Shown one piece after another: positions 3,812-20,233 of a DNA stretch of 21,186 bases. The position numbers were made by a program, and so were the translations under genes. Below the pieces are notes generated by a model. It made no database searches and was not told the DNA's origin. It saw only the letters and a program-made list of their open reading frames with translations. This DNA comes from an uncultured virus (IMG/VR IMGVR_UViG_3300029288_000009). Taxonomy: Duplodnaviria > Heunggongvirae > Uroviricota > Caudoviricetes. The stretch covers positions 62,001 to 83,186 of IMG/VR virus record IMGVR_UViG_3300029288_000009; one strand, written 5' to 3'. The number at the start of each line of letters is the position of its first letter. Within the stretch, counting starts at the first letter, position 1.

Positions 3812-4231
3812 ATGACTCAAACCTTCAAGTTAACTAACGGCGGTATAACCTTCGGCGCAGACCACCGTATAGAGATGGTTGGAGATGCGAACCAACTCTC
3901 GCTTGAAGAAGTAAGGCAGCGTACAGAAATTCGTTTCACCACTCAAACACGCACGAACTTGATGCACCCAAACGAGGGATTCGATTTCTGGTCACTGCTT
4001 AACGTTAAGAAAGATCCGGAGAACGCCTACCCCATAAAGATAGACCAGTTGATAAAACAAGAAGTTCTCGCGACCCTCGCACAAGATAACATGATAGATT
4101 ACCATAACTCGGAGATCCTTGTATCACCTTCCGAGACTGACAATCGCGGGTGGGTAGTGCGCGTGAACTACACGGTCAAGGGTAATTCCACCAAGCAACT
4201 CGAATACATCGGAGGCTTGAACACGCTATGA
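3812..4231 (+). CDS. Baseplate wedge/sheath initiator (gp25/Mu gp46/DUF2634-like)
   Basis: 139 aa with 'EEVRQRTEIRFTTQ...LMHPNEGFDFWSLL...IKQEVLATLAQDNMI', matching the family pattern. It lies directly upstream of baseplate J. Confidence 0.75.
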   Translation: MTQTFKLTNGGITFGADHRIEMVGDANQLSLEEVRQRTEIRFTTQTRTNLMHPNEGFDFWSLLNVKKDPENAYPIKIDQLIKQEVLATLAQDNMIDYHNSEILVSPSETDNRGWVVRVNYTVKGNSTKQLEYIGGLNTL

Positions 4232-6096
4232 GCACGGAAAACTACGGGATGTTGCGGCAAGGGTTTAGGGCTAAGAACCTCGCGAAGATCGTACAAGAGA
4301 ACCGCGTGTTGCTCAAGGAATACTTCGGGGCAGACGTGGATGTTACCGGCATGAACCCGCTTGTTAAGTTTGACGAGGTGGAGTCCCGTGGCGTGGAGCG
4401 AGCGTGGGTAGAGCTTGGAAACTTGTTTAACTCCGGGAATATCAAGGATGCTGAAGGCCAGTTCTTGGACGACCTCGCGCTGTCGATGGGGAAGGAGCGG
4501 AAGCTCGCCGCGAATGCTACGACAAGGTTAACCGTTCTTAAAACATCCGGGTCTTCTGATATAACCATACCCGCTGGGTTCCGCGTGGATAACCAGTCAT
4601 CATCTTCGCTGAAAGAGTTTGAAGTGGACGAGGACACGTTGCTCCCTGGCGTGTTCGTGATAAAGAAAGGAGTCGCTGCTGGTATAGATAGCATAAACGG
4701 GTATCCTGGATTTACAGACTTCTTTAATATACTCACGACTGGAGTAGAATGGGTTTCGCCTAACAAGGATGGTTCTACACCTTGGACTGGTGGAGCTGTG
4801 GACTACGCTCTCGTGGTTGCTGGAACGTACACGACTGGTATAAACTGGGCTGCTGCTGGATTGGAACCAGCGACCGATTCTATCTACTACGTGAAGGTGG
4901 GAAGCTACAGCGCCTACGTGGATGTCACCGCAGTTCTCGCCGGGTCGTTATCGAACGCCCAGATCAACGAGATACACCACCAGCAAAATCCACTCTATGC
5001 GATAGCGAAGGTCACGAACGAGTCTACCATACGGAACGGGCGAGACCTTGAATCAGACACGGAACTACGCCGCCGTCTTCTACAAGCATCCTACCTCTTG
5101 GATAACGACGAGCAGATGACCGCGTGGCTCCAGCAGCTCCACAAGGTAACGTCGGCAAAGGTAATAACGGATCTCTACCAGGACTACCGCGGCCACTTCC
5201 GGTCTCTTGTACACCCTCTCGATGAGAACGACCTCGTGAGCGTGTATAACGAATGCTTGCTTGAAACTGAAACGAGAAAGGCGGCCGGGACTAGTTCGGT
5301 TGCTATAATTAGGATGGTGAAGGGTGGAGCAGCAGCGGTAACCGACGTGTTCCCGTCCCCATACAGACAGACTGCTGGAGTGTCCGGCGTGTGGAGGATA
5401 GACTGGGTTAACTCCCGATACGATGGAACCGGAACGGCGTATGTCGCTGGCACACATTACAACGCTTATACACCGTACATGGATCAGATAGAGTGGATCG
5501 CTGCTGGTCCCGGCGCTGCTCAATACTTCGTGAAGCTCGTGAAGGCAGTGGAGATAGCAGAGACCTTCCCGCTAAGGATAGCAGCGAAGTTATACTTGAA
5601 ACAAGGCTACGACTTATCCACGGTGTCAGCAGAGTTATTCTCTGAACTAAACTCGCATATCAAGACCATAGGAGTAAACGGGATACTCTACATGGCAGAC
5701 GTGTTTAGGATAATCACGGCGCACGAGGGGGTGAAGTATGCGGACGGGTTGTACATGACGCTGACGTGTAGAATTTACAGAGGGCCAGTTGCGGATACCG
5801 CCGACATTATTCCCATCAATGGAAGTGGTAGATATGACGACACTTCCGCAACTGTTTTAGATATCGTGTGGGCGTCGTTAAGTAAATTAGGGACAACTCC
5901 ATACACACGAAGTGTTGATTATCTTTGGTTACCAAGCACGGTACAAGGTGTCAGACGTATTGATTGGAGTCCTGGCGCTCCAGGTCCAGAACCTCCAGTG
6001 AATAATCCATATTGGGTAAAGTGCTACGTGAAAGCTGATATAACTTCTCCGATAGATTGTCTTGTAGTTCTCGATGGATGTGATTTCACGATATGA
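4228..6096 (+). CDS. Baseplate J/gp47-family wedge protein with three inserted repeats
   Basis: Hallmark motifs 'YGMLRQGF', 'AEGQFLDDLA...RKLA', 'ITIPAG', 'VDVTAVLAG', 'NGRDLESDTELRRRL', 'IGVNGILY'. Confidence 0.9.
   Translation: MSTENYGMLRQGFRAKNLAKIVQENRVLLKEYFGADVDVTGMNPLVKFDEVESRGVERAWVELGNLFNSGNIKDAEGQFLDDLALSMGKERKLAANATTRLTVLKTSGSSDITIPAGFRVDNQSSSSLKEFEVDEDTLLPGVFVIKKGVAAGIDSINGYPGFTDFFNILTTGVEWVSPNKDGSTPWTGGAVDYALVVAGTYTTGINWAAAGLEPATDSIYYVKVGSYSAYVDVTAVLAGSLSNAQINEIHHQQNPLYAIAKVTNESTIRNGRDLESDTELRRRLLQASYLLDNDEQMTAWLQQLHKVTSAKVITDLYQDYRGHFRSLVHPLDENDLVSVYNECLLETETRKAAGTSSVAIIRMVKGGAAAVTDVFPSPYRQTAGVSGVWRIDWVNSRYDGTGTAYVAGTHYNAYTPYMDQIEWIAAGPGAAQYFVKLVKAVEIAETFPLRIAAKLYLKQGYDLSTVSAELFSELNSHIKTIGVNGILYMADVFRIITAHEGVKYADGLYMTLTCRIYRGPVADTADIIPINGSGRYDDTSATVLDIVWASLSKLGTTPYTRSVDYLWLPSTVQGVRRIDWSPGAPGPEPPVNNPYWVKCYVKADITSPIDCLVVLDGCDFTI
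4660..6024 (+). repeat. Three ~75-85-aa homologous insertions in baseplate J (approx. 4660-4899, 5314-5538, 5773-6024)
   Basis: Shared pattern (K/R)G....D...(V/I).W......G...(Y/W)....(D/H)Y....I.W...G.(E)P....Y(Y/F/W)VK. Confidence 0.8.
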
Positions 6097-9000
6097 TCGA
6101 TGAATTAATTTCATACATTCCAGAGTCTTCATATTCTGACAAGAAGATGCTCAAGCTTTACAGCGGGCTAGCGAAGAATGGAATCATTATCTCGAACTCG
6201 GATATAGAAGCAACCACGACTCCAGATCAATCGCCTCTTATCGTGAAATCTGAAACTCCAGGAAACAAGAACCACAAAGTCGTCGTTACGAGGCTAAGAG
6301 ATGATGATGGTGTTTACAAGGTTCAATCGGCACACGTCATCCCGTTTAACAAGAAAGGTTCTGTATCACCTCTGACTTTATCCAGTGTCGATATAGAAGA
6401 TTCCTTCGTTAGCACAGGATACGATAGATTCGCGAGGTTCGGTGAGAAACAGTCGTGCGATACGTTTGTAGATTGCATCGATGATTTAACCGGGATATTC
6501 CCGTCGAGCTTCTTGAATATACTTCCAAGGGGAAGCGTGATGCGGGCATACGATGGATATAGTTACAGATCGTTATGCTATTACATCGACACGTTTTTGG
6601 AATCGTCTCCTGGTGTTTACTTCGGAAGTGAAAACAATGCTGGAGGGCTACTTGGATTCCCTCTCGATGGAAAAACATCTTTTCAGTTGGTGAAACAAGG
6701 AATAGACGCTGTTTTCTCCATTTCTGAAGGAACGAGGATAACAAGTGGGTTATACCGCAACGATAAATCCGGGTTGCTTAAGAAGTCTGCATCAGCAACG
6801 GATTGGGAGTCAGACGCTTCTTTAGATCTTATAACGAAGTGGAATAACCATCTTGAAAGCATCGAGTCTGACCCAAGTGGAAACGATGGATTTGAGATTG
6901 AGATTCACGACGGAAAGAAAGGGTGGTGTAGCTTTTGGTTGGATCTTGCCGGGTTAGAACACGTAGAGCAGAACCACGTCGTAGAAAATTTTGAAATTTA
7001 TGCGGTAGGAAACGATCCTAGTGTTATCGATCCGGGACATTGGACGAAATGGATAACTGGGGCATCTACATTTACGGTTCAAGTTGTTGGAGGATCGCAG
7101 ATGGGAGATATGTTTGCTCCTTTAGGAGGATGGGATATACAAACATTATACACCTTCGATAATTCATCGCCAACCATATTTCCGTTTACTATAGAGTTTA
7201 AAGCTGGTGTCAGCACGGTGGATTTAGTTATTCGATCTATTTTCATTTATGGGGTGGGAGGTACAACATCGAGCCTAATAAGATTTTTCAGTACAATGGA
7301 TCTTGGCCATTCGTTACAAGCATCTCTTGGATACGTAGCTGGAACGATATACAACTTCAAGGTTGTTATATTGAATCAATCTTATTTCGATATTTACATA
7401 AACGGTGTTTTATTCAATTTTAGCGGAGTTCACTACACTATAAATCCAGCATTTGTATTCCCGATAACCGGATTGTATATGTCTGCTATAAGCGCTGCCA
7501 ATAACCAACATCTTTATATGGATGTCATCGCGCCGAGTTGGATTATATCATCCGGTCAAACTTCCTGGCTCGAACTCTCTGAGACACGCGACTTCCTCCC
7601 AGACGCGACGGCGAACATCTACTTCCATAATGACGAGATCTATAACGAGGGAAACACACTATATCGAAACATCAACTTCAAGAAACTCCACCGCGTCACA
7701 CTCTCGTGGGACTACACCGTTGCATCCCCGTGGAACACGTTCCGTCTTGACGATCTCGACCCGAAGGAATTCACGTGGGATGACGGTGGTTCAGCTCTTG
7801 TTAACGGCTTCGCGATAAACGCGATTCGCATAGCGGCGAACTACGTGCCGGTCAGAGTCCACGGCTTCTGTCAATCCGGCGACTACTTCCCCTTCGTCCA
7901 CGCAGAGTCTAACAAGCAGAACTACTTGCCCTTCAACTTGGACTTGCTGGAGAAGGTGACCGGGATACTCGGCCCTAACCGGCGGGACACGGAAGGTTTT
8001 AAGAATCTACGGGCAACGCAACCAATAACCGTGGACATGAGCTGCTACACGATAGGAAACATTGCTGGTCAAGGGTCGTGGGTTGCGAACGCTGGTGATG
8101 ACCGGAACGGAACTACTGAAATACACGACATTGTAGAATGTGGTGACACGGACGCTTTTTTCGCGTTGAAAGGATTGCAGCCGTATGGGTACGAAGGTTT
8201 CAACACGTATATTGATGGAAGTAAGATACGTGACGTGAACGGCTGGAACGCATGGGTTGAACATGCTTTATGTACTTTTGTTAAAGATTCCGGAAAGGCG
8301 CGGTTAGTCAAGACTGGTGATACGGGAGGTGCTATCACGAAAACAATGACATTTAGCACACCGTGTTCGGCAGCCGGTTGGTATGAGTTTAAACTTTCAT
8401 TAAATTCGATTAGTGTTGCTGACCAACAATTCCGGTTCTATAGTGGTGGTAGTCTTATCCATTATATGCGTATTTCGAGTCTTGGTATTTTCGCGTGTTA
8501 TGACAATCTTACAAGTCGAAACATCATTACGCCGATGATTGCGTCTACGGAATACACCATTCGTATCGTGTTCGGAGACAACGCGACATATCATCTTGAT
8601 GTCACGCCAATTGGTGGAAATGTTACGAGATTTCCACCAATTGGCGAATACACGAACTATAATGGTGGTACCGGATTTGTATCGTCGTTTGTTATAAACA
8701 GCCTTCAAACAACCGTTGTTGATTTCACGATTGACGATATCATCACGTCTTGGAACACTCTCGGCCCCGACATCCTCGCAACAACCCCGGTCGGGAAGGG
8801 GCGTGTGCTGAAAATATATGACAACAACGCTGGTCTAAACTTGGATTTTCAGAAGACAATTCTCGAAACAAAAGCGCCGAATGGTAGGATCTCTTTCGAG
8901 TGCTGGCCGGTTACTGGTGCTGGCGGGACGTTCTTACAATTCACGTTAAAAGAGGATGCTAACATCCGGATACAATTCTACATAAACTTGACGACCGGTG

Positions 9001-12000
9001 TTGTCTATCTTTATAACAACGTCCCAGCATGGGTTTCTACTGGGTTGACGGCATCGTTAGACGCTGTGAATCATTTTGAAGTTGAATGGTCAAACACTGA
9101 TAGAAATGGTGATGCAAACCCAGACGCTCGTGTAATATTGAACGGCGTGTATAGCCCTTGGATAAGAGCGTTCTCAAATTGGGTGACCGGGATAAATATA
9201 TTTAACATATTAACCGGTGTTGCTAACACCGGTATTGAAGTTTATATCAATGATATCACACTTATCACGACTGGTTTAGCATTTAATTCAGCGATAACCA
9301 AGCCTCAAATCTCCTACCCAGACGGAGACTTCCTCGACGTTCGCTTCCTCCAGCGCGGTCGTGAGCCGGTCGTGGAGCCTTATGTAAGGTTGGTAAATGC
9401 TTCCGGTAATGGTACGGAGCAACGCCTTGTATCCTTAAACGATACCGCCGTGATGGATCACCGCGTGGACGAGGTGAACGTCTACATCCCCACCACACAG
9501 ACGAACTACCGTGTACTCGGCGCTGGTGGTGTCAATGCCCAGTGGACAGACGGCCTTATTCCGAACCATTGGTTGCCACTCGCCTTGACGCATCAGATCC
9601 ACGCAAAGTACCCACGTCTGTTCACTCACGATACGTTCTACAACCGGTATCAATTCTGTTACTCTGCAATGACATCGCTGATAACGGAATACTCGCGCAT
9701 AATCGTGGCTAACTTGAACTACGAGAACTGCGCCGAGATGGAATTCACGCCTAGCGTCCACCCGTTCATACACCCGAATAACATAGCGTTCTACCGGGAT
9801 TGTGAGAATGCTCTACCGGAGAAGTTTAGTAATTCGCCGCAGAGGATGAGGAAGTCCGTGCTGGTTCCACAAGAGTTCTTCGCGGACTACGCGGTAGACG
9901 CGGATATAGTTGCTGCTGCGGCCGCGTGGACGGATGGTGGAGCTGCTGCTGGAGCTAGCTTCACGTGTGTTATGGACGAGGGGATGAAAGTTGGGAAGTA
10001 CGTGAGGGACGCTGTTTTATACACGCCTATATACACGTTTCAAACACCGTCTCCAACTATACCCGGTGTTTATTCGATATCATTTGATGTTAAAGCAACG
10101 GTGGGCGAGTTTAAAGTTAGAATAATGGACGCCGCTGGATCGCGCATCTATCTATGGTTCCGCACTGCAAATTACGCTTTGTGGAACGAAACCGGCCCTG
10201 TTTTGATAGCAAACAACGCATGGGGTGCAAGTGATGAATATCCCGCCTATGTAAACGTGAAACTCGTTATTGTTGGAATCGGTGATTTTTACGTGATCGT
10301 TAACGGAATAACGTACGATAATGCTGGTGCGTATTACGCTAATTCATCCAATTTCACTGGGCCGATAACAAAGCTTCAATTCTATTCTACTGCTGCGAAT
10401 ATGTTTTGTATAAAAAACATAGCACCGAACTGGAAACTCTACCCGGACATCGACGCAGATGACTTCATAGTACACCCGCAATACCTCGGACACGCTAAGC
10501 CCGTGGAGATAGTGTCGCTAGAGGACAAGTGGGGTTTTAGGGATTATGGGAAGTACACGGCAATCTCCAACGCGCATCCAACGCGCTCGTGGGTGTCGTT
10601 CTTTATCACAGCTCCATATGGCGTGGATGAAGGAATTGGAGAGGTGATCCTCTACGATATTGCCGGGAACGAAATGCTTTACATTCAAGTAAACCCGATG
10701 AATAACACGGACTTCTCCGTGCATCCCAAGATGATGCTCTACGATTCCACCAGCGCTGGAGGCGCATTGACCGCGATAGATGGAACGTGGAACGGATGGC
10801 TTCCAGTGACCGTCGAGTTCGATAATGATAACCGGAAGGGGAATATCTACTTCCACGGGCAACTCGTTGCGGGCAACATAACACTCGGAGCTGGAGCGCT
10901 GGTGGGCTTCGGTAAGGTCGTGTTCCTTAGCGGGCTCAAGACTGTTGCCCCGGTGCTTGGTATATGGAGGCAAGAAGACTTCCAATCCTACGCGGAGGCT
11001 GCGGCTCCTGGTGCTCCGTGGGCAATCGTTGCTGGTGGAACCACCGCGTTTACAGCGAGGTATTTGGACGGTGATTCTCGTGGGTATTTGAACGATACCG
11101 ACGGGGCTGCCACGCTATCAGCGCAACTGATGTTTCCGATACCATCCACAGCAGCTCCGGCAGCAGCAAGCCCTTATGCTATTAAATGGTCTCAGCAGAT
11201 AAACACTCTTACTAATAACGGATATGCTGCTCGCATAACAGCGGCCGCTCCAGCGAACGGTGACCTTAGAATACAGATACGCGCTGGTGGTGCTATATGG
11301 AACTACACGGCTGGAGCGTGGGCTAACACCGGTCTATTCGCTCCCTTCCCCACGCTAGAACACGAGATCACCATCCAGTTCACCACGAACGCCTTGTATA
11401 ACATCTACGTGGACGGCGTGTTGCAGAACGCTGCCCCGTTAGCAGTTCAAGTGGCGTTCGCTGCGGTGATAACAGACCTAACGTTTTACACGGAAGCGAA
11501 TGCTGATACAGCACAAGTTTACATTGACGACATCGACGTGAGCTGGTCTGATTGCGTTCAGACTGCTGATATACACCACGTCCACGGCTCCCTACTCATT
11601 GACGGTATAACGTTCGGCGGGTACGACAACAGCAACAAGGACTTCTCATCGCAGACAAAGAACTTGTTTATGCTCCCCTACCGGGACTACATCAACCCGC
11701 ATCACTCGACGTTCCATAACAATCTAAACGGGCTTGACCAAGATATAATCCCGTTGCCTCTGTACAACGCCGTCCCGGACGCGTCGTTTAACATTGCTTC
11801 GTGGACACGCGGTGCGTACTGGGATTATTATTCGCTCGCAACTGCTGGAATGTACGGCGGTGTAGTTCGTAACTGGTACGCGTGGAAGTTCCCCTACGTT
11901 TTCGGCGGGAGGTTTGACGAGCCTAACAAGGATATAAAATCAATAGCTCGCCTATACCACGATGTTGCAACTGCGGACAAGAAGACGAGTGGTAAATGGG

Positions 12001-13862
12001 AATTCGTGATGCACGGGAACGCGAGGCAAGTCTACAACGTTAAAGATGATTTCACGGCATACTTGGATGGTGCTGACATACACGGACTGAACGGGTGGAC
12101 GATCTTTCTTTCCGGTGGAAACACGTCGATCCTCGTTAACGGGTATGAAAACAAAAAGGTATTGCATTTTATCGATAACAGCGGGGCTGCATATTGTCAA
12201 GCTACGAACACGTTGGTTAATGAACGCACGAAAGTTTGTTACGTTCATTTAAAAATGGAGATAGATTCCATTACAGACCAGTTCGTGATTTTTTTAGACG
12301 ACACTGCTGGAAACCATACCGCTGCTGTTAGGTTTGAAACTACCGGTCAAATACAAACGATGCAAGCTGGGGCATATGGTAACATAGTTGCATATCTCGC
12401 TAACACGGAATACGATGTCACTATTAAAGTCGATATCGTTCTTGGTAAATATTGGGTTTATATAAATAACATAATGTACGGTGGAATGGTTGGTTATAGT
12501 CTTGGGAATGCCGTTGCAACCGGCGTTAAAACAATTGAATTGCTTACCGACACTGGTGCTATGACTTATAACGTTTATCTATGGGACTTCTCCGCCTACG
12601 GCGAACCCGGTTCCATAGACGTTACCCTCGACTACGACAAGCTCTACGATTCCGGCCTCGTGGAGATCCCCACGCCTCCGATGGATATCTGCGAGAAGTG
12701 GCAACTTCAATTCGTTCCCGCGTCGATAGGAACCAAGGCGATCATACAAGGGGACGGCATATCCGAGGACTTCCAGCAGTACCTCACGAACGTCGTTCCC
12801 ACGACCGGGTGGACTATTGCCGGGGCTTCCGCGACGGCGTGGTTCAAGACGCTGGATGTTGGCGGGAACATCATCGGGTCTTTCCACGATTTTGATGCCG
12901 CCGCGACGCTAGCTGCATCGTTTGTTTTTCCAACACCTAGCACTAATCCGATTTCGCTTAGAACGTGGGTATCCGCTGATATGACACCGATAACAATCAG
13001 TGGACAAAATATGTGGATGTACGTTCGATCCGCCGTTGCTGGAACGATTTACCTTGGTGTTAGTTTCACGACCGGAAACGAGATCAGAGTGACCCAGGGT
13101 GCTGGAACGATATTGATCGGGACGTGGGTTTCTGGCGTTAAATATCGCGTTCAAATCATCGTTATATCATCATCTCTTTACGATGTTATCATTAATGATG
13201 TTCTATACGATAACGCTGGCGCACATTACACACCCTCGTCTCTTTTCACGGTTGCGAACGTTATAGGATCGTTATATTTTGGAGCCGGTGTTATGGCTAT
13301 GACGAATACAGATGTTTATATCGATAATATCGCAGCATCTTGGCTGCGCGCTCCCACCACCATCGCGAACTACGACAAGGCAAAAGCCCTCCACAAGTAC
13401 ACGGTCGAGTGGGATACCGGCTTCATATGGACAAGCATAGATGACAAGTTAGTAGATCAGCGGAAGTATGCCGGTCGCGTCCCGTTCTACTTGGACAAGT
13501 TCAAGGCTCACGTGTGTAGCGGGTATGGGCTCCACGAGATATATGCGGTGATGTTCGGGGCGCAATGCGATAACGAGGCGGCATACGAGCCAAACTGCCT
13601 TGACTTGATACCTGGTGGAACGATGGAGCAAGAGGGATACACCGGCATCTTGAACACGCGAAACAAGGGAACCTACGCGCTCTTGAACGCTGAAGACGAG
13701 TGGACGTTAGAGAAAACAAACTTCTGGAAAACGATGATGCTTGATTCCGGCGGGCTACCAGTTCTCGGTAACTTCGATGACGTTCAGAACGATCTCGTGG
13801 AGTTAGAAAAGAAAGCCGTGGGACATCGGAGCAACGTGTATAACAACGCTAACAAGGTGTAA
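6093..13862 (+). CDS. Giant (2589 aa) virion adhesin / receptor-binding tail fibre or baseplate protein with ~10 ConA/LamG-like beta-sandwich domains
   Basis: ATGA-coupled to baseplate J. The protein is beta-rich, aromatic- and Gly/Thr/Asn-rich, with recurring modules that begin E(D/N/G)F..Y....W and end (V/F)YID.I..SW. No signal peptide or TM anchor is visible. Confidence 0.75.
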   Translation: MIDELISYIPESSYSDKKMLKLYSGLAKNGIIISNSDIEATTTPDQSPLIVKSETPGNKNHKVVVTRLRDDDGVYKVQSAHVIPFNKKGSVSPLTLSSVDIEDSFVSTGYDRFARFGEKQSCDTFVDCIDDLTGIFPSSFLNILPRGSVMRAYDGYSYRSLCYYIDTFLESSPGVYFGSENNAGGLLGFPLDGKTSFQLVKQGIDAVFSISEGTRITSGLYRNDKSGLLKKSASATDWESDASLDLITKWNNHLESIESDPSGNDGFEIEIHDGKKGWCSFWLDLAGLEHVEQNHVVENFEIYAVGNDPSVIDPGHWTKWITGASTFTVQVVGGSQMGDMFAPLGGWDIQTLYTFDNSSPTIFPFTIEFKAGVSTVDLVIRSIFIYGVGGTTSSLIRFFSTMDLGHSLQASLGYVAGTIYNFKVVILNQSYFDIYINGVLFNFSGVHYTINPAFVFPITGLYMSAISAANNQHLYMDVIAPSWIISSGQTSWLELSETRDFLPDATANIYFHNDEIYNEGNTLYRNINFKKLHRVTLSWDYTVASPWNTFRLDDLDPKEFTWDDGGSALVNGFAINAIRIAANYVPVRVHGFCQSGDYFPFVHAESNKQNYLPFNLDLLEKVTGILGPNRRDTEGFKNLRATQPITVDMSCYTIGNIAGQGSWVANAGDDRNGTTEIHDIVECGDTDAFFALKGLQPYGYEGFNTYIDGSKIRDVNGWNAWVEHALCTFVKDSGKARLVKTGDTGGAITKTMTFSTPCSAAGWYEFKLSLNSISVADQQFRFYSGGSLIHYMRISSLGIFACYDNLTSRNIITPMIASTEYTIRIVFGDNATYHLDVTPIGGNVTRFPPIGEYTNYNGGTGFVSSFVINSLQTTVVDFTIDDIITSWNTLGPDILATTPVGKGRVLKIYDNNAGLNLDFQKTILETKAPNGRISFECWPVTGAGGTFLQFTLKEDANIRIQFYINLTTGVVYLYNNVPAWVSTGLTASLDAVNHFEVEWSNTDRNGDANPDARVILNGVYSPWIRAFSNWVTGINIFNILTGVANTGIEVYINDITLITTGLAFNSAITKPQISYPDGDFLDVRFLQRGREPVVEPYVRLVNASGNGTEQRLVSLNDTAVMDHRVDEVNVYIPTTQTNYRVLGAGGVNAQWTDGLIPNHWLPLALTHQIHAKYPRLFTHDTFYNRYQFCYSAMTSLITEYSRIIVANLNYENCAEMEFTPSVHPFIHPNNIAFYRDCENALPEKFSNSPQRMRKSVLVPQEFFADYAVDADIVAAAAAWTDGGAAAGASFTCVMDEGMKVGKYVRDAVLYTPIYTFQTPSPTIPGVYSISFDVKATVGEFKVRIMDAAGSRIYLWFRTANYALWNETGPVLIANNAWGASDEYPAYVNVKLVIVGIGDFYVIVNGITYDNAGAYYANSSNFTGPITKLQFYSTAANMFCIKNIAPNWKLYPDIDADDFIVHPQYLGHAKPVEIVSLEDKWGFRDYGKYTAISNAHPTRSWVSFFITAPYGVDEGIGEVILYDIAGNEMLYIQVNPMNNTDFSVHPKMMLYDSTSAGGALTAIDGTWNGWLPVTVEFDNDNRKGNIYFHGQLVAGNITLGAGALVGFGKVVFLSGLKTVAPVLGIWRQEDFQSYAEAAAPGAPWAIVAGGTTAFTARYLDGDSRGYLNDTDGAATLSAQLMFPIPSTAAPAAASPYAIKWSQQINTLTNNGYAARITAAAPANGDLRIQIRAGGAIWNYTAGAWANTGLFAPFPTLEHEITIQFTTNALYNIYVDGVLQNAAPLAVQVAFAAVITDLTFYTEANADTAQVYIDDIDVSWSDCVQTADIHHVHGSLLIDGITFGGYDNSNKDFSSQTKNLFMLPYRDYINPHHSTFHNNLNGLDQDIIPLPLYNAVPDASFNIASWTRGAYWDYYSLATAGMYGGVVRNWYAWKFPYVFGGRFDEPNKDIKSIARLYHDVATADKKTSGKWEFVMHGNARQVYNVKDDFTAYLDGADIHGLNGWTIFLSGGNTSILVNGYENKKVLHFIDNSGAAYCQATNTLVNERTKVCYVHLKMEIDSITDQFVIFLDDTAGNHTAAVRFETTGQIQTMQAGAYGNIVAYLANTEYDVTIKVDIVLGKYWVYINNIMYGGMVGYSLGNAVATGVKTIELLTDTGAMTYNVYLWDFSAYGEPGSIDVTLDYDKLYDSGLVEIPTPPMDICEKWQLQFVPASIGTKAIIQGDGISEDFQQYLTNVVPTTGWTIAGASATAWFKTLDVGGNIIGSFHDFDAAATLAASFVFPTPSTNPISLRTWVSADMTPITISGQNMWMYVRSAVAGTIYLGVSFTTGNEIRVTQGAGTILIGTWVSGVKYRVQIIVISSSLYDVIINDVLYDNAGAHYTPSSLFTVANVIGSLYFGAGVMAMTNTDVYIDNIAASWLRAPTTIANYDKAKALHKYTVEWDTGFIWTSIDDKLVDQRKYAGRVPFYLDKFKAHVCSGYGLHEIYAVMFGAQCDNEAAYEPNCLDLIPGGTMEQEGYTGILNTRNKGTYALLNAEDEWTLEKTNFWKTMMLDSGGLPVLGNFDDVQNDLVELEKKAVGHRSNVYNNANKV
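6981..13343 (+). repeat. Six ~186-194-aa homologous modules at 6981-7541, 8190-8753, 9870-10433, 10971-11546, 12042-12599, 12762-13343
   Basis: Starts: VENFEIY, YEGFNTY, QEFFADY, QEDFQSY, KDDFTAY, SEDFQQY. Ends: MDVIAPSW, IDDIITSW, IKNIAPNW, IDDIDVSW, LWDFSAY, IDNIAASW. Lengths are near-identical (558-582 nt). Confidence 0.85.
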
Positions 13863-13865
13863 CAA

Positions 13866-14522
13866 ATGGACATCACCCTATCCAATATGAACGTGAACCC
13901 GGAAACATACGGGAAGTTTTTCTCCCTCTACTTGAACGACTTCAAGGCGGAGCGAGATGCCGCGATGCGGTTATTCGACGTGTACACCTTCACAAACGGT
14001 TATACCGATGACCTATTTCAGTTTAGTATCATCGGTCTCCAAGGTTCCATAGCGCGCCTACTCGCCATCCCAGCGATCCAGCTCAGCCAGATCCGGGACA
14101 CGGCGAGGTGGATACACTTCTCCAAGCTCATACAAAACAAGAGTGGGTTATCATTGTTAAAAAGCGCCGAGGAGATGCTTCCGGAATCACCGGCGGACAT
14201 CGGAGAGGAGAACACGCGAGATCTAATGGAGTTAATGTTCAAGAGAAAGAAGCCGAACATGGAAAACTTGAAAGACTTCCTCGCATCGCTCTACGGTGTA
14301 AACAAGAAGTATTTCACGATAGGCGAGCGTGAATCACAAGCCGCGGTGGATATCCCCATCGTGTATCCCCGCCCTAACGGGATAATCGAGTCATCTGGCT
14401 TTAACTCCTTCTTGGAGAGCGTGATCGACAAGTTTAAATCAGCGGGAATCACTTATGTATATGTAGAAATACTCACAGTAGTAACTACAGTACACATACA
14501 TTCGATAGTGACGATAACATGA
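13866..14522 (+). CDS. Baseplate wedge subunit (P2 gpI/Mu gp48-like)
   Basis: 'NMENLKDFLASLYGV' and the C-terminal 'VIDKFKSAGITYVYV' match the wedge-I family ending (K/R-P/S-A-G/H). It sits in the baseplate operon. Confidence 0.6.
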   Translation: MDITLSNMNVNPETYGKFFSLYLNDFKAERDAAMRLFDVYTFTNGYTDDLFQFSIIGLQGSIARLLAIPAIQLSQIRDTARWIHFSKLIQNKSGLSLLKSAEEMLPESPADIGEENTRDLMELMFKRKKPNMENLKDFLASLYGVNKKYFTIGERESQAAVDIPIVYPRPNGIIESSGFNSFLESVIDKFKSAGITYVYVEILTVVTTVHIHSIVTIT

Positions 14523-17826: not shown

Positions 17827-17846
17827 CCTATACTTTCGTGGTCGAG

Positions 17847-18770
17847 ATGGATTTTCACCCTTTTAATCGCAAGGAATTGGGCGACAAAATCACTCTTTCA
17901 ATAACCATTGGACGCGCTGTTGCATTGACCGGTGGTATAGGAGTAGGCAAGACGTTTCTCGCGCGAGCCGCGATGGACCATATCAAATGCAACGCGATAG
18001 AGTTCGACGCGAATTTTCCGATACAAGAAGCCAGGATTCCTAAACAAGCCTTCAGCTTCGGTAAAAGTTATGGCGTTCTGATAGAAGGAATGGAAAACGC
18101 AATTGCTGATACTTACAAGATGATAAAGAAGCACGTGTTTAAAGACACTTCAAAAAATGGAGATGGTTTGTGGTATGAATCGAGGTTTCCCACCATCTTT
18201 TGCATCTCCAGCAAGTCTAAATTCAAGTTCGGAGAAAAATACTGCGATTTTATAGAAGTACCACCGCTTTCACGAGAAGATATCATCGACGTGTTATCCA
18301 GCATAAACAAGAAAGATTTTGCTCCGGATATCTTGTATGTGATAGCGGATTCTTGTAAAGGAGATATACGGAAAGCGATAAACGCCATGCAAATAGGCCG
18401 GATAGAGGAGACTGGTAAATACGATAAACTTTCCGACATGGTTAAGGTGTTTCTTGGTTGCGACCCGGAAGATCGAATATCGGTGCTTGCCGATAATAAG
18501 GTTGGAGAGTATGGCGGGGTTGGACTGGAGTACCTCATATCACTTGTATCAAGGAACATTAAAGGCTCCGCTGCTGAAGTTAAAAGCGACATGAAAATAC
18601 TCGACAATGCTTCTCGCTTGAAGTACGTTAACGCGGAAGCTGCGAAGTTAATGCTATGCGGTCTAAACCAAAACCGCGTGAGATTTTTAAAGTGGCCTAA
18701 GAAGAAGGTGGATAAGAATGAACCCGGACACGATAATGCAAAAACTAACATGGCTGTCGAAGAGGATTAA
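17847..18770 (+). CDS. rfcL: Replication factor C large subunit-like clamp-loader ATPase (start 17838 GTG or 17847 ATG)
   Basis: Walker A GGIGVGKT, 'IEFDAN' (cf. IELNAS), degenerate Walker B 'VLIEGME', 'SRFPTIFCI' (cf. PIILIAN), and sensor-2 'CKGDIRKAINAMQ'. Confidence 0.75.
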   Translation: MDFHPFNRKELGDKITLSITIGRAVALTGGIGVGKTFLARAAMDHIKCNAIEFDANFPIQEARIPKQAFSFGKSYGVLIEGMENAIADTYKMIKKHVFKDTSKNGDGLWYESRFPTIFCISSKSKFKFGEKYCDFIEVPPLSREDIIDVLSSINKKDFAPDILYVIADSCKGDIRKAINAMQIGRIEETGKYDKLSDMVKVFLGCDPEDRISVLADNKVGEYGGVGLEYLISLVSRNIKGSAAEVKSDMKILDNASRLKYVNAEAAKLMLCGLNQNRVRFLKWPKKKVDKNEPGHDNAKTNMAVEED

Positions 18771-19317
18771 CCTCCGCGACAAGAAGATGTTATCCCTCGC
18801 CTATAACCTACTCGACAAGGCGAAAGCGGATGGATACATCAAGGATGCCCAGTTATTCCAGATAGTCCACGCCTATGTCTCGGCGGCCAAGCTAATGGGA
18901 TTACACGTTAACTTGTTTCAGTTAAAGAAGATAACCAAGGTTCAAATTGGATTAACTGGATTAGAGTTATACATTAAAACAATAGCGCCTTTACTGAACA
19001 TCCAGCGAGCTAACTTCTCTTTGCTCGAATACGGGAAGCGGAAGTTAAATCGACACGTGTTAAGCATTCCAGCTTGTGAGATGTTCGTGGATGCACTACA
19101 AGGTATAGAGAAGGATTTATCGAAGGTCGTGAATAATGGGAACATGGATAGATACCTCGGGTCGCTGCTGTACGTGGTCACGAGGACGCTAAACGTCCCG
19201 CCTTCCTTCGCCGCCGTGTGTCGGATGTTCCACGTGAGCGAGGTAAAAATGCGGGCGGTGATGCCGGTGATAAACGAGATGTTAAACAAGAAGAAGGAGA
19301 ACGAGAGCAATGAGTGA
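18718..19317 (+). CDS. TFB/TFIIB core-like protein (two cyclin folds, no Zn ribbon)
   Basis: Repeat 1 is 'LSKRINL...LAYNLLDKAKADGYIK...IVHAYVSAAKLMGLHVNLFQL'. Repeat 2 is 'GNMDRYLGSLLYVVTRTLNVPPSFAAVCRMFHVSEVKMR', paralleling TFB 'G.SP..LAAAALY......TQ.EVA....VTEVTVR'. Confidence 0.7.
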   Translation: MNPDTIMQKLTWLSKRINLRDKKMLSLAYNLLDKAKADGYIKDAQLFQIVHAYVSAAKLMGLHVNLFQLKKITKVQIGLTGLELYIKTIAPLLNIQRANFSLLEYGKRKLNRHVLSIPACEMFVDALQGIEKDLSKVVNNGNMDRYLGSLLYVVTRTLNVPPSFAAVCRMFHVSEVKMRAVMPVINEMLNKKKENESNE

Positions 19318-20233
19318 AACATACGCGCAAAAATACGAGCCTAAATATTATGACGAATTGATAGAATGTGACGAAGTAAAAGAGTTATTCAAATCGAAAA
19401 CAGCAGATGAGATGCTTAACTACGCGTTCACCGGAACACCAGGAACGAGCAAATCATTGATGGCGAAGATAATCGCGAATGATAAGTTTCCACGAAATAA
19501 TCACACGTGGAACATGAGCCTTGAAGGGACTAAAGCGAATATAGAATCAGAGGTGATGTCTTTTTGTAGCGAACCGGCGCTTGGTGGAGCGAAATACAAG
19601 CTGGCGATATTCAGCGAGGCTGATGGAATAACACCGGCAGCTCAGAAGGCTTTGCGCGTCCCGATGGAGGATTTCGCGGACACGATAAAGATAATCATCA
19701 CCGCGAATTATCAATCCAAGATAATCGACGCTCTTCTATCTCGTGGTTGCACGATACGGTTTAATAAACCTTCCTTGAAAGGAATCATCGAGTGGGTTAG
19801 CCGGATTGCTTCCGGAGAGAAGTTGAAAATAACAGAAGCGCAGATACAAGGCGTTGCTAAGGAAGCTGGCGGAGACTTCAGAAAGGCTGCTAATCTTCTC
19901 CAAGGGTGGACCGCGGGAAAGAAGGTGTTCTATAAAGTCAAGACGGAAGTGGATAAGGATATCTCAGATTATCTAAAGGAGATATTAGTACCAGATCTTG
20001 ACAAGTCAATGACCTTAGCCGAGTCAATGCTACTCAAGTATAACGAGCGTGACCTTGTAAATGATATTACCAGGAAGATCGCGACCAGTACATTACCACA
20101 GCTAGTCAAAGCTAATATACTGGTATCTTGTAAAGATCTAGCTCTATCAATAGAACATACTGACTCGTATGTAGCAATACACGGGTTTACTGGAGATCTA
20201 ATTAAATACATAGCTGCGGTGAAGAAGAAGTGA
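19310..20233 (+). CDS. rfcS: Replication factor C small subunit (clamp loader)
   Basis: 'YAQKYEPK' (cf. WVEKYRP), 'FTGTPGTSKS', 'YKLAIFSEADGITPAAQKALRVPME', 'IIITANYQSKIIDALLSRG', 'GGDFRKAANLLQ'. Confidence 0.9.
   Translation: MSETYAQKYEPKYYDELIECDEVKELFKSKTADEMLNYAFTGTPGTSKSLMAKIIANDKFPRNNHTWNMSLEGTKANIESEVMSFCSEPALGGAKYKLAIFSEADGITPAAQKALRVPMEDFADTIKIIITANYQSKIIDALLSRGCTIRFNKPSLKGIIEWVSRIASGEKLKITEAQIQGVAKEAGGDFRKAANLLQGWTAGKKVFYKVKTEVDKDISDYLKEILVPDLDKSMTLAESMLLKYNERDLVNDITRKIATSTLPQLVKANILVSCKDLALSIEHTDSYVAIHGFTGDLIKYIAAVKKK

Follow-up and report, generated by a model that had tools for sequence, protein, structure and literature searches.

Host-binding proteins that vary at the level of whole modules are known both in bacteriophages and in haloarchaeal viruses. 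Invertible tail-fibre cassettes of the Mu G / P1 C type rely on a serine or tyrosine site-specific recombinase, on inverted sites at the flanks and on an alternative cassette kept silent. In lactococcal 936 phages, carbohydrate-binding modules (CBMs) are inserted in 'evolved' Dit, TpeX and neck proteins (PMC6669499), and exchange within or near conserved motifs, with no dedicated enzyme, is described for T-even gp38 and for hafunavirus tail-fibre adhesins in the available text of two reports (PMC3157838, PMC9229481).

The protein considered here, of 2,589 aa, is encoded in a window of 21,186 nucleotides (the whole stretch of DNA that was analysed, positions 62,001 to 83,186 of IMG/VR record IMGVR_UViG_3300029288_000009), which belongs to a metagenomic virus record with a complete 83-kb genome, rated 100% complete. 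As far as the available text on the 936 phages goes, the two cases are alike in that a conserved structural protein of the virion carries optional CBMs, internal or appended, whose presence varies among relatives; optional insertion of a CBM-type fold in a conserved structural scaffold is found here as presence or absence at fixed slots and in the predicted fold of one module. However, the scaffold here follows a baseplate J gene, carries a fused baseplate domain in relatives and matched no Dit profile (Pfam and PHROG were among the profile searches). It holds six common slots plus a nested module, compared with one insertion per Dit in the available text of PMC6669499, and it has a codon mosaic; binding here is predicted only. 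With the gp38 and hafunavirus adhesins it shares the alternation of conserved and variable stretches, but in the available descriptions theirs are short loops between glycine-rich motifs of a small tip protein, whereas here whole domains of about 190 aa vary in number along a protein of 2,600 aa, and no gp38 profile matched (Pfam, PHROG). No description of this protein family was found in the literature covered, which included few subscription papers.

From the layout, the varying number of modules, their faster divergence, the codon switches at their edges and the lack of any match to reverse transcriptase (RT) or site-specific recombinase, the reading favoured here, with moderate confidence, is that of a scaffold bearing seven predicted sugar-binding modules, each likely to come, go or be swapped as a whole through ordinary recombination close to its conserved ends, which would retune binding to the host surface. 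Exchange taken by itself, gain and loss aside, is probable. Crossovers would fall in the scaffold flank or within the first 10-40 or last few codons of a module, donors would be related viruses with lower GC3 and the same restriction regime, and selection would favour new specificities, each swap changing which cell surfaces the virus grabs. An earlier note on this DNA had proposed host-range diversification by domain exchange, a reading that is partly supported.

Scaffold and modules of the gene

Seven homologous modules of about 190 aa, one nested inside another, were identified by profile search of the 2,589-aa protein; BLASTP of the protein against itself gave no repeats, which emerged with pairwise scores and the profile. 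Module letters A to F and the nested module follow this profile, and modules 1-6 of the earlier note correspond to A, nested, C, D, E and F. The features are as follows.

4228..6096, + strand: baseplate J / wedge gene, directly upstream (PF04865, E 3.9e-16; phrog_6, E 1.4e-33)
6093..13862, + strand: ORF of 2,589 aa, seven modules set into a conserved scaffold
6093..6980, + strand: N-terminal scaffold (aa 1-296), in 4/4 full-length orthologues at 28-40% identity; low GC3 (0.45)
6981..7544, + strand: module A (aa 297-484), GC3s 0.30; slot occupied in 2/4 orthologues
7545..8033, + strand: scaffold S1, GC3s 0.68
8034..8189, + strand: module B, first part (aa 648-699), separated from the rest by the nested module
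8190..8756, + strand: nested module (aa 700-888), GC3s 0.37; in 0/4 orthologues
8605..8646, strand not given: perfect 17-bp inverted repeat with 8-nt loop within the nested module; fold z -8.3
8757..9266, + strand: module B, second part (aa 889-1058); slot occupied in 3/4 orthologues, one clade with support 100/99
9267..9869, + strand: scaffold S2, GC3s 0.62
9870..10436, + strand: module C (aa 1260-1448), GC3s 0.42; slot occupied in 3/4 orthologues
10437..10970, + strand: scaffold S3, present in every orthologue at 33-74% identity and more conserved than any other part; GC3s 0.62-0.63
10971..11549, + strand: module D (aa 1627-1819), GC3s 0.40 in first half and 0.64 in second; slot occupied in 3/4 orthologues
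11550..12041, + strand: scaffold S4, GC3s 0.62
12042..12599, + strand: module E (aa 1984-2169), GC3s 0.39; slot occupied in 2/4 orthologues; Sialidase-like_CBM match
12600..12761, + strand: scaffold S5, GC3s 0.69
12762..13346, + strand: module F (aa 2224-2418), slot occupied in 2/4 orthologues and in fragment P0004; predicted concanavalin-A-like sandwich
13347..13862, + strand: scaffold S6, GC3s 0.68
13866..14522, + strand: 218-aa ORF, in frame after the stop of the 2,589-aa ORF

The first part of module B has its match at the beginning of slot B of orthologues (local scores of 43, 48 and 76, with a few flank residues included) and is covered in 2/3 orthologues in a separate orthologue alignment; the profile match of the second part begins at profile position 30 of 192. 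The region 8800-9290, taken in the earlier note for AT-rich scaffold and thus for an exception to its own rule, is in fact largely this second part (8757-9266) of a seventh module, split by the note's module 2, so the exception mostly disappears.

The 2,589-aa protein is predicted to be attached to the baseplate, from its place after baseplate J and from the fusion to a baseplate domain in relatives. The 218-aa ORF has its counterpart as a fused C-terminus in the four full-length orthologues, 6 proteins in all matching it at their C-termini with 35-47% identity, and aa 2057-2196 of orthologue P0002 match the phrog_1160 baseplate protein (E 5.3e-5); its product is likely a baseplate anchor, judged by these sequence matches. 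In the structure model, the scaffold has pLDDT under 50, so the model gives no structural support for insertion of the modules in loops, a point against the favoured reading.

Orthologues were found by full HMMER search, while word-index protein searches gave the protein itself or nothing. Aligning homologues for module presence and absence, a check that the earlier note had proposed, gave a varying count at these slots: 7 here, 4 in P0002, 5 in P0003, 6 in P0005 and 0 in P0006. The scaffold is retained in 4/4 full-length orthologues, whatever the number of modules. Modules are less conserved than scaffold in 27/27 same-slot comparisons, contrary to the equal conservation that the earlier note had named as speaking against its reading. 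Together, six common optional slots for whole domains, a nested insertion and edges mostly marked by codons make an unusually clear natural record of module-level variation.

Codon usage along the gene

The earlier note had seen AT-rich modules within a GC-rich scaffold; its four hand counts are exact (19, 16, 36 and 35 GC of 60), and the mosaic is genuine after amino-acid control, GC3s being 0.41 in six modules (1,086 codons) and 0.65 in scaffold (765 codons). This gap was reached by 0/5,000 within-codon-family shuffles (z 10), which excludes the uniform GC3 named in the note as a contrary outcome, and by 3/518 circular label shifts, the unshifted one included. Codon positions 1 and 2 are nearly even, at 0.41-0.54 across all segments. 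The usage of core genes is closely followed by scaffold (r 0.90) and hardly by modules (0.13), which correlate with low-GC3 genes at 0.62.

Switches were placed with a two-state codon HMM whose training set, 33 GC-rich and 12 GC-poor genes, left out the 2,589-aa ORF. Measured from the six outer module ends, the return to the genome-core state comes at 2, 11, 4, 84, 7 and 3 codons, hence within 2-11 codons for five, and 0/830 shifts came as close. The low state is entered 12, 13, 13, 33 and 42 codons inside five module starts, the first 42 codons of module F being core-like (GC3s 0.82) and its remainder low (0.37). Switches near module boundaries, as claimed before, are thus confirmed for five of the six outer ends and fail at the start of module A, where no switch occurs; scaffold-like codons at module edges, also claimed, are borne out for starts. 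The codon switches at module edges count for exchange of modules as units.

Other parts depart from the rule. Module D had been called less AT-rich, which is right for its core-like second half (0.64) and wrong for its low first half (0.40). In module B, aa 889-951 have core-like codons. A low-GC3 tract (5767-7550) spans the gene boundary and conserved scaffold, covering the 3' end of the baseplate J gene (109 codons from 5767; GC3s 0.29, vs 0.60) and the N-terminus (6093-6980), an exception to the GC-rich scaffold at 0.45. Half of D, part of B and the low N-terminus count against the favoured reading.

Exchange or inheritance in place

At slots A, E and F, same-slot likeness between proteins is 0.20-0.29 (P0004 apart), no closer than the 0.19-0.31 between different slots within this protein, which counts for module exchange. 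The closest relative, P0004, keeps 25/27 identical residues in S5 and 139/171 in S6; in its module F the first 40 residues are 29/40 identical and the interior 76/155, and the drop falls about at the codon switch. Exchange near motifs of the gp38 kind fits both the codon switches and this drop; recombinant pairs were not seen. Domain exchange at module ends, as the earlier note had it, is partly supported by the varying module number and by the kept flanks and diverged interior in P0004, and not by the motif patchwork between modules that the note had cited. Its six peptide motifs and an 18-mer are all present, but identical residues use different codons in 3/7, 8/12 and 2/5 positions, and 2/3 motif pairs recur in modules of other proteins (3-4 and 19-21 of 37). 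Conservation of the family accounts for the patchwork, which was rejected as proof of recombination. DNA likeness at module ends reaches 20/24 nt, with a maximum of 15 in 196 random in-frame pairs; at 12-20 of 24 nt, recombination between slots would have little to work with, and conserved residues alone may account for this likeness.

Alternatively, the modules could be old insertions inherited in place, with early gain and loss, fast divergence, low GC3 as a regional lag and no recent exchange, an explanation that is unlikely overall and yet the most serious competitor. Such a lag could arise, for example, if GC3 in conserved DNA is raised by homologous recombination or codon selection and divergent regions escape these; GC-biased conversion is known in prokaryotes. 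In a bootstrap tree of 36 rows (8/44 rows excluded as near-copies or long branches), slot B modules form one clade and those of C and D mostly cluster by slot, so that most modules descend in place; the slot-F module of P0003 falls among slot-D modules (90/87, unstarred), which counts for exchange. For A, E and F, a single clade per slot is not rejected by AU tests (p 0.186, 0.054 and 0.096). Inheritance in place is also favoured by the avoidance of the genome's under-represented words, almost alike in modules (0.76) and scaffold (0.67), a likeness that counts for the favoured reading too, and by the patchiness of other genes, with z above 3 in 6/26 of those of at least 300 aa and a raw GC3 variance higher in baseplate J than in the 2,589-aa ORF. 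Against it stand the sharp switches a few codons from module ends, the nested module lacking in all four orthologues, the conserved N-terminus that is low in GC3 though not divergent, and the lack of a residue-level link between conservation and GC3. The GC3 effect is regional, conserved module residues having 0.44 and variable scaffold residues 0.63, and AT-rich codons arising at fast-evolving residues were rejected on this ground. If inheritance in place alone holds, the gene is a neat example of domain accretion and brings no new mechanism.

Predicted fold and possible sources of the modules

Module E matches PF22585 (Sialidase-like_CBM) with 27.2 bits at a cut-off of 27, and the other six modules missed this cut-off, with no PF22585 match in the Pfam scan. 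The model of module F resembles a domain of sialidase BT_1020 (Z 20.3, rmsd 2.4, 177 aligned), the domain with which Vibrio cholerae sialidase binds sialic acid (2w68; Z 14.0, rmsd 3.8, 183 aligned) and CBM2 of the evolved Dit of Lactobacillus phage J-1 (5ly8; Z 12.7, rmsd 4.0, 185 aligned), at 5-14% identity of modules to solved chains. The predicted model of F has the jelly-roll beta-sandwich of concanavalin-A-like lectins; that of E is all-beta, and the listed fold-search rows do not span it. A concanavalin-A-like fold is thus predicted, from models for E and F and from the fold search for F, and the modules are predicted to bind glycans. PDB sequence searches gave nothing significant. Foldseek on a 650-aa model gave low TM-scores across mixed domains, a lead only, as are the ESM Atlas results: 0.95-0.97 with DUF6645, Sialidase-like_CBM and DUF6772 clusters for module F, and 0.91-0.94 with LamG-type clusters among others (104-132 common features) for aa 985-1145 of the module-free P0006. 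A first fold model (6-row alignment, pLDDT 49) was discarded with its Foldseek list. Catalytic modules of GH16 type were rejected, the acid pattern being present in 0/23 viral modules. These 23 modules are small, single-domain and easily expressed, and might serve as probes for host surface glycans, helping to find the host, which may be an Asgard archaeon.

Tandem modules of the same family are present in P0010, named Ca. Lokiarchaeota archaeon, and others in P0009 and P0013, proteins with Ig-like or beta-helix domains. That the modules were captured directly from an Asgard (Lokiarchaeia) host, out of AT-rich genes for surface proteins and by way of short likeness at module ends, is quite improbable, although these proteins speak for it, as do the best pairwise matches of the nested module (modules of P0009 and P0012) and a quick tree in which the nested module and module A join such proteins (SH-aLRT 95 and 96). 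Both joins are lost in the bootstrap tree, and host origin of these two modules as a tree result was rejected; moreover, the family is also found in Paenibacillus proteins, and the lineages of slots B, C and D lie inside the virus group.

Probable absence of a programmed switch and likely nature of the virus

The earlier note had found no RT or invertase in the window, and this holds for the complete genome: RT (PF00078) and serine and tyrosine recombinases (PF00239, PF00589) gave 0 matches at E up to 1, and no RT family was seen in 90 ORFs, whereas the RT, tyrosine and serine recombinase searches matched in 4, 14 and 13 of 14 control genomes. No second copy of module DNA or silent cassette lies on either strand of the genome (tblastn, blastn). 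As for a template/variable repeat, no repeat of the gene occurs elsewhere in the genome, whose one 127-bp repeat pair lies outside the gene with 14 mismatches not restricted to A. The longest 25 inverted pairs listed are 70-89% complementary over 30 nt or less, and no flanking inverted sites were found among them. Variation by a diversity-generating retroelement or an invertible cassette is therefore largely refuted and very improbable, even if variable lectin-type domains in tail-region genes are usual targets in the available text of PMC4372165 and PMC5006420 and one module holds a perfect hairpin, the only one of its kind in the genome (arms of at least 11 bp, loop up to 30). A chimeric assembly, with several strains or organisms joined in one mosaic, is barely credible: the record comes from a metagenome and its only full holder is possibly its own source, but a single 83,089-base contig of the source run covers the whole gene, free of joints and with 0 differences, the frame stays open for 7.8 kb across 13 switches, and the slot layout recurs in orthologues of other origin. 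This contig shows no alternative modules either, which counts against present swapping in the sampled population, with the limit that contigs drop rare variants.

The virus is likely archaeal, and its host would be archaeal, possibly Asgard. Among Asgard tailed viruses, Fenrir and Nidhogg (10.1101/2021.07.29.454249) and NMV1 (10.64898/2026.08.12.739948) resemble it in gene content: as far as the available text goes, baseplate J appears in both reports, Fenrir and Nidhogg have RFC-small- and RFC-large-like ATPases, and NMV1 has a complete genome of similar size (96.6 kb), whereas the text of the reports mentions no modular lectin baseplate protein. Pointers to an Asgard host are limited to gene content and look-alikes of the modules. 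The locus of relatives was not found in the viral contigs, metagenome contigs or GTDB genomes searched. The 2,589-aa protein and the capsid protein had no match among 50,697 phage records, and baseplate J, terminase and RFC had distant phage matches only. A bolder version of the favoured reading, doubtful at present, is an Asgard myovirus family with a baseplate lectin plug-board: at least six fixed sockets plus nesting, a concanavalin-A-like pool common with host surface proteins, and enzyme-free swaps at conserved ends. If true, it would offer a readable record of co-evolution between Asgard cell-surface glycans and the viruses of these cells.

Run X2 contains 0.06 of the sequence words, in pieces that bridge nothing and were left out of account; they include 197 nt identical at 8729-8925, with only 28 letters left of a module junction, and 153 nt in S3 with 21 differences.

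Codon usage of the large ORF

The large ORF (6093-13862; 2,589 aa), lying directly behind the gene for baseplate J, is a mosaic in codon usage. Synonymous GC3 (GC3s) is 0.41 across six modules versus 0.65 across the scaffold. Shuffling codons inside their families 5,000 times never gave such a gap, so GC3 does not become uniform once amino-acid composition is controlled for. Module borders in this comparison were first drawn by eye, and a profile later agreed within a few residues. A two-state codon HMM, trained on other genes (33 GC-rich and 12 GC-poor), served as an independent check. At the six outer module ends it returned to the core state at distances of 2, 11, 4, 84, 7 and 3 codons, none of 830 circular shifts being as close; the low state begins 12-42 codons inside five module starts, and the outcome held over three switch rates. 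Compared with core genes, codon usage gives r 0.90 for the scaffold and 0.13 for the modules. The GC3 effect is regional: GC3s at conserved and variable residues is 0.44 and 0.41 in the modules, and 0.63 at both in the scaffold.

The earlier note had described this composition mosaic with switches near module boundaries, and its observation is confirmed; its four hand counts of GC and all quoted motifs are exact, and its interpretation is partly supported. The pattern is imperfect, as it had said, since the second half of module D is core-like, as is aa 889-951. The supposed AT-rich scaffold at 8800-9290 instead belongs to module B, because aa 889-1058 (matching from profile position 30) and aa 648-699 (aligning, in relatives, with the beginning of slot B) form that module around a nested one. 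Motifs shared between modules, taken for recombination patchwork, reflect family conservation, with many synonymous differences.

GC3 patchiness is also found in 6 of 26 other genes of at least 300 aa, and raw GC3 variance is higher in baseplate J (0.0216) than in the large ORF (0.0181). A low-GC3 tract (5767-7550) covers the last 109 codons of baseplate J, the conserved N-terminus of the large ORF and module A; two interacting parts may here have been replaced together as one block.

Module gain, loss and probable exchange

Pairwise comparison shows the six modules to be homologous, with z above 3 in 14 of 15 pairs and as high as 16.5. A phmmer search with aa 1390-2589 against 1.84 billion proteins gave 17 matches, of which four are full-length orthologues (P0002, P0003, P0005 and P0006), three are fragments from the C-terminus and ten are other proteins. 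With an iterated profile, seven modules are recognised in the large ORF, against 4, 5, 6 and 0 in the respective orthologues. Aligned on shared scaffold, slot A is occupied in two of the four, slots B, C and D in three, and E and F in two, and the nested module within B, module 2 of the earlier note, has a counterpart in none. This presence and absence, which the earlier note had proposed to look for, shows whole modules gained or lost at fixed slots, as read from aligned proteins. Between the last scaffold segment (S6) and the C-terminal fusion, P0006 carries about 470 additional residues, in which the profile has one weak match; this stretch is possibly another slot. The nested module exceeds the other modules by about 7 residues at the site of a perfect inverted repeat (17-bp arms, 8-nt loop; 8605-8646). 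This repeat, unique for its size in the 83-kb genome, may therefore have arisen by template-switch duplication. The family also occurs in P0010 (named Ca. Lokiarchaeota archaeon), in P0009 and P0013, which bear Ig or beta-helix domains, and in Paenibacillus proteins, one named exo-alpha-sialidase. P0018 (1,659 aa, ENA) carries five such modules on a different scaffold, suggesting movement of the module between unrelated genes too.

In all 27 of 27 same-slot pairs drawn from the four full-length proteins that bear modules, the module was less conserved than the scaffold. In P0004, the closest relative (a C-terminal fragment), identity is 25/27 in scaffold segment S5, 29/40 over the first 40 residues of F, 76/155 in the F interior and 139/171 in S6, dropping approximately at the codon switch. 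Exchange of modules as units, by ordinary recombination near their ends, would produce the codon mosaic and is judged its likeliest cause, with moderate confidence. In a tree of 36 of the 44 modules (200 bootstrap trees, the bootstrap not fully settled), slot B forms one clade (support 100/99), C and D group together (82/81) with the P0003 slot-F module inside, and none of the 200 trees recovers slot A, E or F as a single clade. AU tests of one clade for A, E and F did not reject it (p 0.186, 0.054 and 0.096), so that replacement by an unrelated module is only suggested. Old inheritance of the modules in place is an unlikely source of the mosaic, and capture of modules from the host is less likely still. 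Modules (0.76) avoid the genome's under-represented words, picked from the whole genome with the large ORF included, almost as strongly as scaffold does (0.67). This favours long residence, or donors subject to the same restriction regime, and argues against fresh import from unrelated organisms.

The genome encodes a PD-(D/E)XK nuclease and an endonuclease VII domain, which may act in general recombination. The absence of a reverse transcriptase or invertase, noted earlier for the window, extends to the complete genome, with no match to a reverse transcriptase, tyrosine recombinase or serine recombinase and no template repeat or silent cassette found; a DGR or invertible cassette is thereby largely ruled out. 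The best-matching run, labelled landfill metagenome and possibly the source of the record, assembles the large ORF in one contig without joints, which means only that abundant alternatives were not assembled, because contigs lose rare variants. The arrangement resembles the way T-even phages and hafunaviruses shuffle their adhesins near conserved motifs (PMC3157838, PMC9229481, PMC10791045).

Predicted fold and anchoring

Modules E and F, modelled from a 21-row alignment, are all-beta, with most ten-residue blocks at pLDDT 70-94 and scaffold below 50. For the module F model the top match is a sialidase BT_1020 domain (Z 20.3, rmsd 2.4, 177 residues aligned). Well below it (Z at most 15.1) come, among others, GH16 enzymes, alginate lyases, the binding domain of Vibrio cholerae sialidase and the CBM2 of the J-1 evolved Dit; module E reaches the PF22585 cut-off. 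A GH16-type acid pattern was found in none of 23 viral modules. The modelled fold suggests that the modules bind sugar. In its working the protein resembles CBM-bearing evolved Dits (PMC6669499). Membership of the Dit or gp38 family is unsupported. No description of the present family was found in the literature searched; passages of PMC8813620 and PMC13452462 hold nothing specific.

The 218-aa ORF behind the large ORF is a C-terminal fusion in all four full-length orthologues, and its P0002 counterpart hits a family of baseplate proteins (E 5.3e-5), so the array is likely anchored to the baseplate rather than forming a classical fibre tip. At 13860-13866 the stop of the large ORF is in frame with the 218-aa ORF, and P0004 stops at the same place; the split is real, with read-through possible.

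Genome setting and candidate host

The record (83,186 bases, direct terminal repeats, rated 100% complete), of which the window is the final 21 kb, encodes three DNA methyltransferases, a Mu-F-like head protein, baseplate J, two clamp-loader-like ATPases, a weak TFIIB-repeat match and a divided polymerase:

G000:C1:8496-11191 (complete genome), family B DNA polymerase, divided between two adjoining ORFs

Terminase and portal gave weak matches only. Baseplate J points to a contractile tail, and no sheath was identified by profile. The TFB-like gene and the two clamp loaders suggest an archaeal host. Published Asgard viruses have similar gene content. Fenrir and Nidhogg carry RFC-like ATPases, with baseplate J among the hallmark genes (10.1101/2021.07.29.454249), WyrdV1 (10.1101/2021.07.29.453957) and JinchiV1 (PMC13700489) carry TFB, and the 96.6-kb NMV1 encodes baseplate J and is predicted to have a contractile tail (10.64898/2026.08.12.739948). 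An Asgard archaeon is a plausible candidate host.

The clamp-loader-like genes (window 17838-20233) have GC3 of 0.45 and 0.44, and the TFB-like gene between them 0.63. Several hexamers are wholly missing from the genome (30-51 expected), four of them palindromes; with the three methyltransferase genes, they may be a fingerprint of host restriction systems. A 127-bp direct repeat (89%; G000:C1:7176-7302 and 7869-7995) spans ends and starts of tandem small genes, its mismatches lacking adenine specificity. The Mu-F-like head gene (G000:C1:46320-48137; L003:8320-10134) contains a LAGLIDADG-like domain in a region with GC3 of 22-34%; an AT-rich source probably supplied it as an intein-type or homing insertion. 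Near the capsid gene, a 533-aa gene (G000:C1:56109-57710) of uniform, lowish GC3 (0.48) has a CBM_4_9 domain (E 4.6e-8), making its product a second candidate glycan-binding virion protein.
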